Source of the DNA: Escherichia phage vB_Eco_T-01
DNA length: 64,000 bases
Sequence record: PQ438391.1
Direction: 5' to 3' (one strand)
Of this stretch, positions 16,165-47,158 are shown piece by piece; positions within the stretch are counted from its first letter, which is position 1; each line of letters starts with the position of its first letter. The position numbers were made by a program, and so were the translations under genes. The notes beneath the pieces were generated by a model that made no database searches, was not told the origin of the DNA, and saw only the letters and a program-made list of their open reading frames with translations.

Positions 16165-16246
16165 CATACAAGTAATATAAATCTATACTTAGGAAAAATA
16201 GATGATTCTAGGTCCTGTAAATTCATTAAAAATTTTTTCACAAAAC

Positions 16247-16300
16247 TGTTTACAAGACTGTTCTTCCATGGTACTATACAACTATCAACTACTGATACAG
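16247..16300 (+). repeat. promoter-leader cassette copy (early promoter plus conserved leader CAACTATCAACTACTGATACAG)
   Basis: Shares TGTTTACAAGACTGTTCTTCC[A/G]TGGTACTAT with 43945..43975 and the leader with 35499..35520 and 47119..47140. Confidence 0.7.
16248..16277 (+). promoter_or_regulatory. T4-type early promoter (GTTTAC ... TGGTACTAT), part of a recurring promoter-leader cassette
   Basis: 18-bp spacer; near-identical copy at 43946..43975. Confidence 0.6.
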
Positions 16301-16314
16301 ATTTGGAGAATAAA

Positions 16315-16551
16315 ATGAAAATTGTTATGGGATGCTTAGCAGTTTGTTTAGTTGCATTAGCAGCAGTTCCATTTGTTAGTGTTGAAAATGATACTCAACC
16401 TGTGATTGAATCTAGCACCGTTATTCACACTAATGGTAAAATATCAGTTAAAATTGATGATAATCTTCATGTGAATACAAATGGATCTTTAGGTGTGCAA
16501 ATGGGTAATACCTGCATAAGCACTACTGGAGTAATTACTACTTGCATTTGA
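16315..16551 (+). CDS. hypothetical secreted or membrane-anchored protein
   Basis: ATG at 16315 after the promoter-leader cassette; hydrophobic N-terminus MKIVMGCLAVCLVALAAVPFVSV; Cys in C-terminal part. Confidence 0.5.
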   Translation: MKIVMGCLAVCLVALAAVPFVSVENDTQPVIESSTVIHTNGKISVKIDDNLHVNTNGSLGVQMGNTCISTTGVITTCI

Positions 16552-16561
16552 GGAAATTATT

Positions 16562-16942
16562 ATGAAAATCGCTATTTTGGTTATTGCATTAGGTCTTACT
16601 GGTTGTGTAGCTCAAGGACCGGTAGTAAATCAGTCTGATGTAGGAAAAATTGTAAACTGTTCAAGCAAATTTTATAATCCTAATGTCAAGTGTTATAAAG
16701 AAGCTCCAAAGCAAACAGTAGAACAAATGCAGGCGAATTTTGACGAAGCTATTCGTCCAGATAAATCTGCTCAAGCATATCGTAATTCGGATGTAATTAC
16801 ACGCGAAGAAAAAATTGAAAACTACTGCGCCGAGCTTTGGGCTAATTGGGCTAATAATTACCAATGGCGTACTGGTAAAAATGCTCCGATGGAGTATGTA
16901 GTGAATTCTTATAATTCATGTGTAAAAAATTTGACTAAGTGA
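16562..16942 (+). CDS. putative lipoprotein
   Basis: 126-aa ORF; signal peptide with lipobox-like LTGC; several Cys in the mature part. Confidence 0.55.
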   Translation: MKIAILVIALGLTGCVAQGPVVNQSDVGKIVNCSSKFYNPNVKCYKEAPKQTVEQMQANFDEAIRPDKSAQAYRNSDVITREEKIENYCAELWANWANNYQWRTGKNAPMEYVVNSYNSCVKNLTK

Positions 16943-16949
16943 GGAAAAC

Positions 16950-17201
16950 ATGGAAACTTTAGTAGCAGGTTCAATTTTTATGGTTTTAGTTTCAGGTGTG
17001 TTGGCTATTATTATATACATGCTTCCATGGTTTATCGCCTTGATGCGTGGGTCAAAATCGACAGTAGGAATCTTTTTCACATCTTTACTGTTTAACTGGT
17101 CAATTATTGGTTGGTTTATTACATTTATTTGGTCAATTGCGGGTGAAACTAAAAAGTCTGCACAACCAAATCAGGTAATTATCATCAGAGAGAAGGAATG
17201 A
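16950..17201 (+). CDS. imm: superinfection immunity protein Imm (two-TM membrane protein)
   Basis: 83-aa ORF with two hydrophobic helices; length and position upstream of gene 42 match T4 imm. Confidence 0.65.
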   Translation: METLVAGSIFMVLVSGVLAIIIYMLPWFIALMRGSKSTVGIFFTSLLFNWSIIGWFITFIWSIAGETKKSAQPNQVIIIREKE

Positions 17202-17347
17202 AAAGCAAAATTATAACAGTGTTGCTTTTAATCTTGATGATTATAATAAGTATATACTATAGTGTAACGGTTCCTCTTATGATTCCAACTATTATTTTAG
17301 GTTGGGGTTTATTACTGTTACAAGTTAAATATGAATGTATCAATTGA
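17198..17347 (+). CDS. hypothetical small membrane protein (imm.1-like)
   Basis: 49-aa hydrophobic ORF overlapping the imm stop (ATGA). Confidence 0.35.
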   Translation: MKSKIITVLLLILMIIISIYYSVTVPLMIPTIILGWGLLLLQVKYECIN

Positions 17348-17354
17348 GGTTTAA

Positions 17355-45259: not shown

Positions 45260-45418
45260 ATGAATATCGCAAAATTATTAGGAGTTATTTCATTTATTTG
45301 TTGGATAGTAGCATGTGTTTTAACTATCTGTATCGATGCTAGCAGTGTGTTTTCACAAGCTTTAGCCCAGGGTATGTGTGCATATTTAACATTTGTGTTA
45401 TTATCTACTAATGATTAA
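45260..45418 (+). CDS. hypothetical small membrane protein
   Basis: 52-aa hydrophobic ORF with GAGGAAAATATG. Confidence 0.35.
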   Translation: MNIAKLLGVISFICWIVACVLTICIDASSVFSQALAQGMCAYLTFVLLSTND

Positions 45419-45551
45419 GAAAATCTTGGGCTATTCATTAGCCCTTGCTACTTTATTGGTAGCACTATATTATGGAGTAATGTTCGGATTAATTCAAGTC
45501 GTGCTTTTCATTTCTGATGTTATTATGGCACTACATTCACTAGTATGGTAA
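45411..45551 (+). CDS. hypothetical small membrane protein
   Basis: 46-aa hydrophobic ORF overlapping the previous stop. Confidence 0.3.
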   Translation: MIKKILGYSLALATLLVALYYGVMFGLIQVVLFISDVIMALHSLVW

Positions 45552-45555
45552 ATTT

Positions 45556-46884
45556 ATGCAACTGAATAATCGCGATTTAAAAAGTATCATTGATAATGAA
45601 GCATTGGCTTATGCTATGTACACGGTTGAAAATCGTGCCATTCCAAATATGATTGACGGATTTAAGCCAGTTCAACGATTTGTTATTGCTCGAGCTCTTG
45701 ATTTGGCACGAGGAAATAAAGATAAGTTTCACAAACTTGCTTCTATTGCAGGTGGTGTAGCGGACCTTGGGTATCATCATGGTGAAAACTCTGCACAAGA
45801 TGCGGGGGCTTTGATGGCTAACACTTGGAATAATAATTTTCCTCTGTTAGATGGTCAAGGAAACTTTGGTTCTCGTACCGTCCAAAAAGCAGCAGCAAGT
45901 CGTTATATTTTTGCTCGTGTAAGTAAAAATTTCTATAACGTATATAAAGATACTGAGTATGCTCCGGTACATCAAGATAAAGAACACATTCCGCCTGCTT
46001 TCTATTTGCCTATTATTCCTACTGTTCTTCTTAATGGCGTTTCCGGTATTGCAACTGGTTATGCAACTTACATTCTTCCTCATAGCGTTTCTTCTGTCAA
46101 GAAAGCTGTATTACAAGCTCTTCAAGGAAAGAAAGTAACTAAACCGAAGGTAGAATTCCCAGAATTTCGTGGTGAAGTCGTTGAAATTGATGGGCAATAT
46201 GAAATTCGTGGAACATATAAGTTTACTTCACGAACTCAAATGCATATCACTGAGATTCCGTATAAGTATGATCGTGAAACTTATGTGAGTAAAATCTTAG
46301 ACCCACTTGAAGATAAAGGCTTCATTACATGGGATGATGCTTGTGGTGAGCACGGCTTCGGCTTTAAAGTTAAATTCCGTAAAGAATATTCTTTGAGCGA
46401 TAATGAAGAAGAACGCCATGCAAAAATTATGAAAGACTTCGGGTTGATTGAGCGTCGTTCTCAGAATATTACCGTCATTAATGAGAAAGGAAAACTGCAA
46501 GTTTACGATAACGTAGTTGATTTAATTAAAGACTTTGTTGAAGTTCGTAAAACTTATGTCCAAAAACGAATTGATAACAAAATCAAAGAAACTGAGTCAG
46601 CTTTTCGTTTAGCCTTTGCCAAGGCACATTTCATTAAGAAAGTAATTTCAGGTGAAATTGTTGTTCAAGGTAAAACTCGTAAAGAACTGACCGAAGAACT
46701 TTCGAAAATCGACATGTATTCTTCTTATGTTGATAAACTAGTTGGAATGAATATTTTTCATATGACTTCTGATGAAGCAAAGAAACTTGCTGAAGAAGCT
46801 AAAGCTAAAAAAGAAGAAAACGAATATTGGAAAACTACTGATGTAGTTACAGAATACACCAAAGATTTAGAGGAAATCAAATGA
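45556..46884 (+). CDS. 52: DNA topoisomerase II medium subunit gp52 (GyrA-like)
   Basis: 442-aa ORF recognised as T4 gp52. Confidence 0.95.
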   Translation: MQLNNRDLKSIIDNEALAYAMYTVENRAIPNMIDGFKPVQRFVIARALDLARGNKDKFHKLASIAGGVADLGYHHGENSAQDAGALMANTWNNNFPLLDGQGNFGSRTVQKAAASRYIFARVSKNFYNVYKDTEYAPVHQDKEHIPPAFYLPIIPTVLLNGVSGIATGYATYILPHSVSSVKKAVLQALQGKKVTKPKVEFPEFRGEVVEIDGQYEIRGTYKFTSRTQMHITEIPYKYDRETYVSKILDPLEDKGFITWDDACGEHGFGFKVKFRKEYSLSDNEEERHAKIMKDFGLIERRSQNITVINEKGKLQVYDNVVDLIKDFVEVRKTYVQKRIDNKIKETESAFRLAFAKAHFIKKVISGEIVVQGKTRKELTEELSKIDMYSSYVDKLVGMNIFHMTSDEAKKLAEEAKAKKEENEYWKTTDVVTEYTKDLEEIK

Positions 46885-47030
46885 GTCCATTCGTAGGTAT
46901 TACAAGCGCTGCGTTAGTATCTGGTGCCATTTTACTGGCGGGTTTAGGCGTTGTTCCAGCCGTAGCAGGAGGTCTTCTTGCGTTCGGAATTCAACGTGTT
47001 ATCACGATAGTTATCGCGTTTGAGCAGTAA
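46881..47030 (+). CDS. hypothetical small membrane protein
   Basis: 49-aa Gly/Ala-rich hydrophobic ORF overlapping the gene 52 stop; terminator follows. Confidence 0.35.
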   Translation: MSPFVGITSAALVSGAILLAGLGVVPAVAGGLLAFGIQRVITIVIAFEQ

Positions 47031-47035
47031 TTTTA

Positions 47036-47062
47036 GGGAGAGCCGAGGCTCTCCCTTTTTTA
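47036..47062 (+). terminator. rho-independent terminator after gene 52 region
   Basis: GGGAGAGCCGAGGCTCTCCC then TTTTTTATTT. Confidence 0.7.
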
Positions 47063-47087
47063 TTTCAAAAATTTTTTTCACAAAACG

Positions 47088-47117
47088 GTTTACAACCAAA
47101 GCATACTGTGGTACTAT
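47088..47117 (+). promoter_or_regulatory. T4-type early promoter upstream of motA (GTTTAC ... TGGTACTAT)
   Basis: 18-bp spacer; conserved leader follows. Confidence 0.6.
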
Positions 47118-47158
47118 ACAACTATCAAATACTGATACAGAATTACGGAGATTAGAAA

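Follow-up and report, generated by a model that had tools for sequence, protein, structure and literature searches.

Early promoters of phage T4 have been described as 'uber' promoters, in which UP, -35, TGn, and -10 elements are combined with additional consensus regions (Hinton, 2010; PMC2988021). Promoter early stem-loop (PeSL) modules consist of an early promoter preceded by AT-rich DNA, a stem-loop whose position varies, and a Shine-Dalgarno (SD) sequence plus ATG at the 3' end; they are concentrated beside ORFans, and promoter activity, terminator activity, and mini-circles have been demonstrated for them (Arbiol et al., 2010; PMC2839356). The PeSL concept was extended to T4/PST with the consensus TTTACW-N17-TAYWAT, and Figure 6A of that study treats the ndd region, where the exchange of ndd.4/.5 is used as an example (Comeau et al., 2014; PMC4122927). 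Furthermore, RegB and ribosomal protein S1 recognize GGAGRAYARAA (the T4 optimum is GGAGAAUAAAA) on single-stranded RNA, with no particular sequence needed 5' of GGAG, and motA RNA is a good RegB substrate (Durand et al., 2006; PMC1702504); RegB cuts in SD sequences, so that early mRNAs are functionally inactivated (PMC3014915). Here we describe five recurring promoter-leader modules in a 64,000-nucleotide stretch of DNA from Escherichia phage vB_Eco_T-01 (PQ438391.1), hereafter the window, which, judging from its sequence, is a segment of a Tequatrovirus (T4-like) genome that also carries gp43 and rIIA/B.

We put the probability at roughly 85% that these modules are immediate-early expression cassettes with RegB-sensitive leaders that are reused as recombination homology, which is the PeSL mechanism. 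This reading draws on the sequence family, synteny, mosaicism, and junction positions observed here and, for the promoter class, the RegB site, and the PeSL experiments, on the literature. Such modules are a well-described early-promoter/PeSL property of T4, and vB_Eco_T-01 adds one more Tequatrovirus to what is already known. An original prediction, made by a model from the letters of the window, had claimed at least five recurring non-coding modules, and all five were found where it had placed them. They lie on the + strand, which is the early-gene direction according to the open reading frame (ORF) layout of the window and the T4 annotation, and each contains TGGTACTAT-N4-CTATCAA. The composite TGGTACTATNNNNCTATCAA, allowing up to two mismatches, has exactly five matches in the window (at 16269, 35489, 43461, 43967, and 47109) against 0.03 expected, and TGGTACTAT alone occurs seven times against 0.49 expected. 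A profile built on the five copies returns its own sites with E values of 1.6e-20 (site 1), 2.5e-16 (site 2), 4.7e-19 (site 3), 4.4e-20 (site 4), and 3.1e-19 (site 5). The window was compared with seven relatives, namely T4, T2, REP1, PYps32T, PaulHMueller, teqdroes, and Sf23 (eight genomes in total), and the five sites are syntenic in all of them, with profile E values of 1e-14 to 1e-21. Their T4 counterparts are the imm.1, cef, ndd.6, ndd.4, and motA promoters; the T4 records NC_000866 and AF158101 carry no promoter annotation at these five positions, and an Rfam scan of window positions 15-50 kb gave no family above threshold.

All five modules share one layout. Site 1 (16222..16317), between gp43 and a 78-aa ORF, has a UP tract at about 16227-16247, the -35 element GTTTAC at 16248-16253, TGG at 16269-16271, and the -10 element TACTAT at 16272-16277, followed by a predicted +1 at A16284, a leader of type A, GGAGAATAAAA at 16305-16315, and ATG at 16315. 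Site 2 (35444..35543), between motB and an 89-aa ORF, has a UP tract, a degenerate -35 element (ATATAC), TGG at 35489-35491, and the -10 at 35492-35497, with a predicted +1 at 35504, leader A, GGAGAATAAAA at 35531-35541, and ATG at 35541. At site 3 (43412..43499), between denB and an 87-aa ORF, the -35 is at 43440-43445, TGG at 43461-43463, and the -10 at 43464-43469; the predicted +1 at 43476 begins a leader of type B with GGAGG at 43485-43489 and ATG at 43497. Site 4 (43919..44006), between ndd.5 and an ndd.4-like 37-aa ORF, has its -35 at 43946-43951, TGG at 43967-43969, -10 at 43970-43975, and predicted +1 at 43982, followed by leader B, GGAGG at 43991-43995, and ATG at 44004. Finally, site 5 (47062..47161) is the motA early promoter, in which a UP tract precedes the -35 at 47088-47093, TGG at 47109-47111, the -10 at 47112-47117, and a predicted +1 at 47124; leader A here contains GGAG at 47147-47150 and leads to the ATG of MotA (211 aa) at 47159.

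An A/T-rich UP-like tract of the AAAAATTTTTTCACAAAAC type thus precedes the -35 position at all five sites; AAAAATTTTTTCACAAAAC is common to sites 1, 2, and 5, partly to site 3, and to a further copy at 1625, and upstream identity within the family is 43-73%. The extended -10 element (TGGTACTAT, that is, TGn plus TAnnnT) is likewise present at five of five sites; for comparison, 17 GTTTAC-N18-TAnnnT sites of the window were aligned at their -10 elements. GTTTAC (TTTACA), with a 17-nt spacer to the -10, had been ascribed to the modules generally and is found at four of the five, whereas the copy at 35489 has ATATAC. The spacer between GTTTAC and TGGTACTAT is 15 nt instead of the predicted 18; a distance of 18 nt is obtained from GTTTAC to the hexamer TACTAT, and one of 17 nt from TTTACA to TACTAT. 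The published T4/PST consensus is matched at four of the five sites, with an SD sequence and a start codon at the 3' end; together with the shared ndd region, this bears out the suggested likeness to T4-type PeSL modules and places the family in the T4 early class.

The transcription starts are extrapolated from T4. The -10 of the T4 site-1 orthologue ends at 27,051, and a start predicted 7 nt downstream falls at 27,044, which is the T4 map unit at which the region downstream of Pe26.4 begins (PMC6024815); the same spacing was therefore used in the window, where each of the five predicted starts is the A of CTATCAA(C). From this analysis, we infer that the five modules are T4-class early promoters, each with a leader and a ribosome-binding site, and that they are active from these positions in vB_Eco_T-01. 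The family stands out mainly in the region from +1 to +25 that follows the -10, where its members show 56-92% identity; among 12 other early-type promoters, the value is about 20-45%.

The modules had been called near-identical, and this is true of their sub-modules but not of whole units, as the five copies, compared without gaps over -60..+22, are only 55-73% identical. The single difference in 31 nt reported between 16247-16277 and 43945-43975 was confirmed, and the spacer is identical at 17 of 18 positions between sites 1 and 4 only. The cassette is a mosaic of sub-modules, not a single repeated unit. The similarity among modules goes beyond what function calls for, which supports their reading as PeSL homology patches. 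Two spurious ORFs that had been reported to read the cassette into a shared peptide do translate to KLFTRLFFHGTIQLSTT and KLFTRLFFRGTITLSTT. The same artefact occurs in the T2 record PV958097 (segment 6170-6277), where an annotated 108-nt 'hypothetical protein' reads through the site-1 cassette.

The two leader variants that had been described are both present. Leader A (sites 1, 2, and 5) is CAACTATCAACTACTGATACAG...GGAGA..ATG and ends in GGAGAATAAAATG or GGAGATTAGAAAATG, and leader B (sites 3 and 4) is CTATCAACTACGGAGGAACA and ends in GGAGGAACA(A/G)AAAATG. Sites 3 and 4 are separated by 506 bp, and their common CTATCAACTACGGAGGAACA block is perfect over 20 nt. Predicted leader lengths are 21-38 nt, with the GGAG SD sequence near the 3' end. 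At sites 1-4 the leaders have a minimum free energy of 0 to -0.6 kcal/mol (z +0.9 to +1.6), and 161-200 of 200 shuffles fold as well or better; the site-5 leader is average (-4.7 kcal/mol, z -0.3, 75 of 200 shuffles as good). A 5'-terminal hairpin (AUCA/UGAU) in leader A was considered and rejected, as it amounts to only -0.6 kcal/mol, is less stable than shuffles, and is missing from leader B. The RegB/S1 consensus is matched at 11 of 11 positions at sites 1 and 2, which are exactly GGAGAAUAAAA, at 10 of 11 at site 5, and at 9 of 11 and 8 of 11 at sites 3 and 4, respectively, which are of the GGAGG class. The 3' ends of the leaders are therefore predicted RegB/S1 targets in unstructured RNA of the translation initiation region. 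The regB gene itself lies outside the window (T4 regB is at 62.3 kb). Overall, the original prediction was right in the main and is partly supported; it overreached on mobility and did not recognize the conserved 3' part of the leader as a known RegB/S1 site.

The conserved start region might also be a signal in its own right. In one form of this explanation, TGGTACTAT-ACAA-CTATCAACTAC, which covers the discriminator and the first transcribed nucleotides, would act as a separate functional signal (for example, as a mark of the Alt-stimulated class, a promoter-escape element, or an S1-loading translational enhancer), with any recombination role being secondary; we consider it doubtful. Another, to which we give similarly little credence, is that the invariant TGGTACTAT-N4-CTATCAAC segment determines a subclass of early promoters or mRNAs through the response to Alt-ADP-ribosylation, promoter escape, or S1 loading. 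Such a signal would fit with the presence of the segment on only a subset of early promoters, with its G-poor, CA-rich, and unstructured character, and with the occurrence of variants in Tequatrovirus, Dhakavirus, Jiaodavirus, and Gelderlandvirus; in addition, promoters with identical -35/TGn/-10 elements respond differently to Alt, and the determinants of Alt stimulation are unexplained (Hinton, 2010; PMC2988021). However, RegB/S1 needs no specific sequence on the 5' side of GGAG (Durand et al., 2006; PMC1702504), and the segment is broken or replaced in orthologues that keep the gene, as in the PYps32T motA leader and in the site-3 leaders of PYps32T and PaulHMueller, both of which carry 3-nt deletions.

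The stem-loop part of the PeSL likeness is clear at only three or four of the sites: sites 1, 2, and 5 have a distinct stem-loop, site 3 has a weak one, and site 4 has none. On the + strand, a terminator-like stem-loop, GGGACCTCCGGGTCCC, followed by a T-run (16143..16165; hairpin 16143-16160; -13.9 kcal/mol, z -2.2), stands after gene 43, about 80 nt upstream of the site-1 -35. An intrinsic-terminator-like hairpin, AGGGAGAGCCGAGGCTCTCCCT, again on the + strand and followed by a T-run (47035..47066; hairpin 47035-47056; -19 kcal/mol, z -4.6), lies directly upstream of the motA promoter, and both hairpins are GC-rich. Site 2 contains a perfect 13-bp inverted repeat, ATCAGTAGTTGAT / ATCAACTACTGAT (35474..35516, + strand; -20.2 kcal/mol, z -5.3, 0 of 200 shuffles), which brackets the -10, has no T-run, and has its second arm beginning at the predicted +1; it is kept in all eight genomes, where a minus-strand profile match recurs. 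This repeat could modulate the promoter or serve in the processing of read-through motB transcripts. The site-2 promoter spacer contains an inverted copy of the leader. Site 3 has small + strand hairpins at 43403-43421 and 43447-43465 (z -2.8), and site 4 has no stem-loop (z +0.2). Terminator-like hairpins are enriched in window positions 42500-47400 as a whole (14 versus 2.4 expected), and a bidirectional pair at 42558-42575 and 42787-42802 flanks a small ORF after rIIB. A classic PeSL layout is seen at 26440-26499, where another early promoter, 26470-26499, lies directly behind a hairpin and T-run, ggactccttcgggagtcctttttt. Some 50 nt upstream of it ends a soc-region segment (25983-26421) that is replaced in T2, PaulHMueller, teqdroes, and T4.

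What follows the leader varies at several sites. At site 1, T4 lacks the 78-aa ORF, and the cassette is fused to imm.1 via ATGAAAAT, which is repeated at both start codons; T2 has leader B and an unrelated 83-aa ORF (ORF83). Only a remnant of the site-2 ORF is left in T4 and PYps32T, where the deletion begins 7 nt into the ORF. At site 3, leader B precedes the ORF87 family (phrog_2390) in the window as well as in teqdroes, leader A does so in REP1 and PYps32T, and PaulHMueller has an additional 68-aa ORF. Three ORF87 alleles share only 51-55% protein identity, whereas the DNA of the genomes carrying them is elsewhere about 95-97% identical (window 43497-43760 was compared with segments 34235-34498 and 34437-34700 of relatives), a divergence that points to allelic replacement or strong diversifying selection. 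At site 5, PYps32T has a 322-bp insertion within the motA leader, comprising a 75-aa ORF and a second promoter, with copies of a 23-nt direct repeat, a third leader type, on either side. Of about 500 Tequatrovirus records, 318 have the site-1 ORF, 260 a complete and 85 a partial site-2 ORF, 37 the window allele of ORF87, and 138 the 75-aa ORF inserted before motA.

Probable footprints of exchange between sites are seen in T4 itself. T4 sites 1 and 3 have a 60-nt tract in common (TGGTACTAT...ATGAAAATCGCT) with one mismatch, and ndd.6 therefore looks like a chimera: in a comparison of T4 166910-167111 with T4 27013-27106, ndd.6 (28 aa as annotated; MKIAEIEL in the frame of the leader ATG) consists of the imm.1 promoter, leader, and first four codons joined to the last codons of ORF87, and it is probably not a functional gene. 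Similarly, the T4 promoters at 55333 (55333-55411; nrdC.10) and 146836 (146836-146899; frd.3) have about 58 identical nt, which begin in the UP tract and stop abruptly after CTATC; these promoters are 91 kb apart, with a candidate exchange junction inside the start region.

The downstream ORFs had been taken together as a mobile accessory set. This agrees with the partial distribution of the site 1-3 ORFs and with the occurrence of homologues of the PYps32T 75-aa ORF and of T2 ORF83 at other loci in other genera. Homologues of the 75-aa ORF (57-71%) in Gelderlandvirus and Jiaodavirus stand in other contexts, again enclosed by GTTTAC...TAYTAT promoters whose leaders are of the CTATCAAAAC type, with GGAGAATAAAATG. 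A 54% homologue of ORF83 lies between rI.-1 and mobD.3 of Dhakavirus IME08, behind a terminator hairpin, an early promoter, and CTATCAACTA. However, the set does not include motA, the middle-transcription activator, or ndd.4, and no ORF was found at two different cassette sites among the eight Tequatrovirus regions, non-syntenic homologues occurring only in other genera. The proposed check of presence and order in relatives thus gives variation at sites 1-3 and invariance of motA and ndd.4.

Duplication of a promoter together with its gene, leaving paralogues, or the footprint of a site-specific mobile element (integron-like or homing endonuclease) might also leave repeats directly 5' of small ORFs. 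T4-like genomes are rich in homing endonuclease genes, one of which accounts for an 875-bp insertion at 10661 in PaulHMueller. The downstream ORFs are nevertheless unrelated: they belong to separate PHROG families without cross-hits, which led to the rejection of paralogy, and they have no Pfam matches. Moreover, none of the five sites has a recombinase, integrase, or seg/mob gene beside it, either in the window or in its seven relatives, and the junction points vary within the leader instead of marking a fixed site. We regard this explanation as very improbable.

Pairwise indel maps over 10-50.5 kb gave 44 junction clusters; an 11-kb alignment gap in PYps32T is a chaining failure, not an indel, and was left out of the junction statistics. 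Indel or replacement junctions lie within the leader or the first codons at four of the five sites among the seven relatives, site 4 being the exception, and this is also the association with variable ORFs and indel junctions that characterizes PeSLs. A junction at 0 to +60 nt from the -10 is found at four of the five family sites versus one of nine other early promoters. For five randomly placed sites, this enrichment has P ~5e-5. The suggestion that the modules act as homology patches for gene shuffling is supported by these junctions, although some of them are start-codon microhomology deletions. We infer recombination as their cause.

It might be argued that function alone explains the family, in that purifying or convergent selection for promoter strength, start choice, escape, translation, and RegB sensitivity would keep the modules similar with no role in gene shuffling, and indels would merely fall at gene boundaries. 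Much of the conservation does have an ordinary functional cause in RNA polymerase contacts and the RegB/S1 site, each conserved block being a known contact or target (UP, -35, TGn, -10, RegB/S1). In addition, module positions are stable in all eight genomes, several junctions are microhomology deletions, and CTATCAA at +1 recurs in three other genera. However, spacers of sigma-70 promoters are not expected to be constrained and are unrelated among the other early promoters, yet those of sites 1 and 4 are nearly the same. As this leader is missing from most early promoters of the window, early expression does not depend on it. Furthermore, near-identical tracts of 58-60 nt with abrupt ends connect distant T4 loci, a duplicated leader flanks the PYps32T insertion, and leader type and ORF switch together. 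Function alone is therefore an unlikely explanation.

On the favoured reading, that of expression cassettes reused as recombination homology, the A/T-rich UP tract would be contacted by the C-terminal domains of the alpha subunits (alpha-CTDs) and GTTTAC (-35), TGn, and TACTAT (-10) by sigma, making a very strong sigma-70 promoter. Transcription would start at the A of CTATCAAC, 7 nt past the -10, and yield a short, G-poor, unstructured leader whose GGAG SD sequence doubles as a target of RegB and ribosomal protein S1. A strong promoter with such a leader would lead to immediate expression followed by inactivation: the unmodified host machinery would transcribe and translate the downstream ORF at once, and the mRNA would be functionally inactivated a few minutes later. 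The 60-90 bp module recurs many times in a single orientation, with at least 12 strong copies in T4, and these copies would constitute dispersed direct repeats for the very active homologous recombination of the phage. Crossovers or conversion tracts starting in the shared -10/leader segment would homogenize the modules into mosaics, and the same events would delete, insert, or replace the following small ORF, as in the published PeSL mechanism.

Several points weigh against this reading. The starts in the window are extrapolated from T4, and two of the five downstream genes never vary, motA and ndd.4 being present and 91-100% identical in all eight genomes. The right-hand junctions lie at start-codon/SD microhomologies (ATGAAAAT) or at conserved 3' gene ends, not in a second cassette, and a simple cassette-to-cassette crossover therefore does not explain every event. 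Whole-gene indels are tolerated only at gene boundaries, so that part of the enrichment at cassettes reflects selection; against about 70 other gene starts, 17 of which were hit, Fisher's test gives only P ~0.02, an approximate value from a hand-made start list. Finally, CTATCAA is also kept in promoters of Dhakavirus, Jiaodavirus, and Gelderlandvirus, which suggests that functional constraint on the start region may add to the similarity.

Beyond the five copies, the profile adds three weaker relatives in the window, at 1569-1648, 22455-22519, and 33767-33824, which the original prediction had missed. The member at 1569..1648 (+ strand, E 2.5e-10) has the UP tract and TGGTATTAT in common with the family and an unrelated leader, and is orthologous to T4 41654-41733, upstream of 55.6. 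A partial member between dexA and motB.2 (33767..33834, + strand, E 1.3e-5) has GTTTAC-N15-TGGTACTAT and a leader ending in CTACTGAGGATAATAAAATG, and a 1-kb deletion in T2 begins nearby, at 33864. Another partial member, upstream of sp (22455..22530, + strand, E 0.0028), has GTTTAC-N18-TACTAT and a leader ending in AAACTACTGAGGAG. A profile scan of T4 outside 83-109 kb gave 17 matches with E <1e-3, 12 of them with E <1e-9; all are on the early strand and directly 5' of ORFs, the hyperplastic regions of nrdC, e, tRNA, and frd holding most of them, and the one at 53887 matches the T2 site-1 promoter with leader B.

The surrounding genes are those of a T4-like early region. A 5-kb piece of the window at 43-48 kb is 95-97% identical to many Tequatrovirus genomes and encodes DNA topoisomerase gp52, motA, ndd, and denB. 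On the + strand, the window carries gp43 (13434-16130), imm (16950-17201), gp42 (17355-18095), uvsX (19012-20193), gp41 (20540-21967), dda (31032-32351), an unsplit gene 39 (37344-39164), rIIA (39433-41610), rIIB (41622-42560), denB (42866-43423), gp52 (45556-46884), and motA (47159-47794). Gene 39 is unsplit at 38764-38829 (606 aa), where T4 carries a 1.1-kb insertion consisting of a mobA remnant, 60.1, and the gene 60 split with translational bypass. About 200 extra bp are found at the equivalent of 42849-42870 in PYps32T, PaulHMueller, teqdroes, and Sf23, in whose records a 330-nt ORF and a 477-nt denB are annotated; denB is one 558-nt gene in the window, T4, T2, and REP1.

These cassettes leave the current understanding unchanged. 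The modules would let T4-like phages front-load small host-takeover genes and then shut them off, and their repetition would provide a built-in route for gene swapping, with the cargo being candidates for host-range and anti-defence functions. For annotation, they help in choosing the right start codons and in removing spurious ORFs that run through a promoter; they also predict immediate-early, RegB-sensitive expression and mark the site 1-3 ORFs as variable cargo.

Compared with T4 early promoters (PMC2988021), the modules have the same UP tract, GTTTAC -35, TGn, TAnnnT -10, orientation, and syntenic positions, and nothing essential is different; beyond the consensus of the Pe class, the five copies share the TACTAT -10, the CTATCAAC start region, and two leader types, with site 2 lacking a consensus -35. 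Published RegB/S1 sites (PMC1702504) are matched at sites 1, 2, and 5, and by the GGAGG class at sites 3 and 4, in unstructured RNA; they account for only the 3' third of the cassette and are predicted here from the sequence match. The flanks of the T-even internal-protein (IP) locus, as cited by Comeau et al. (Repoila et al., 1994, via PMC4122927), represent a different locus at which, according to that account, alternative small genes are likewise shuffled between conserved regulatory flanks. Relative to the PeSLs (PMC2839356, PMC4122927), a convincing terminator stem-loop is present at only two of the five sites here, whereas one site has a stem-loop that overlaps the -10, site 3 a weak one, and site 4 none; the shared leader and start region form a stronger homology block than the stem-loop does. 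The features in common are the AT-rich early promoter, the SD sequence and ATG, a stem-loop associated with some of the sites, adjoining variable small ORFs, the T4/PST consensus, the ndd region and, in one case here, an inserted ORF between two promoters with the same leader.

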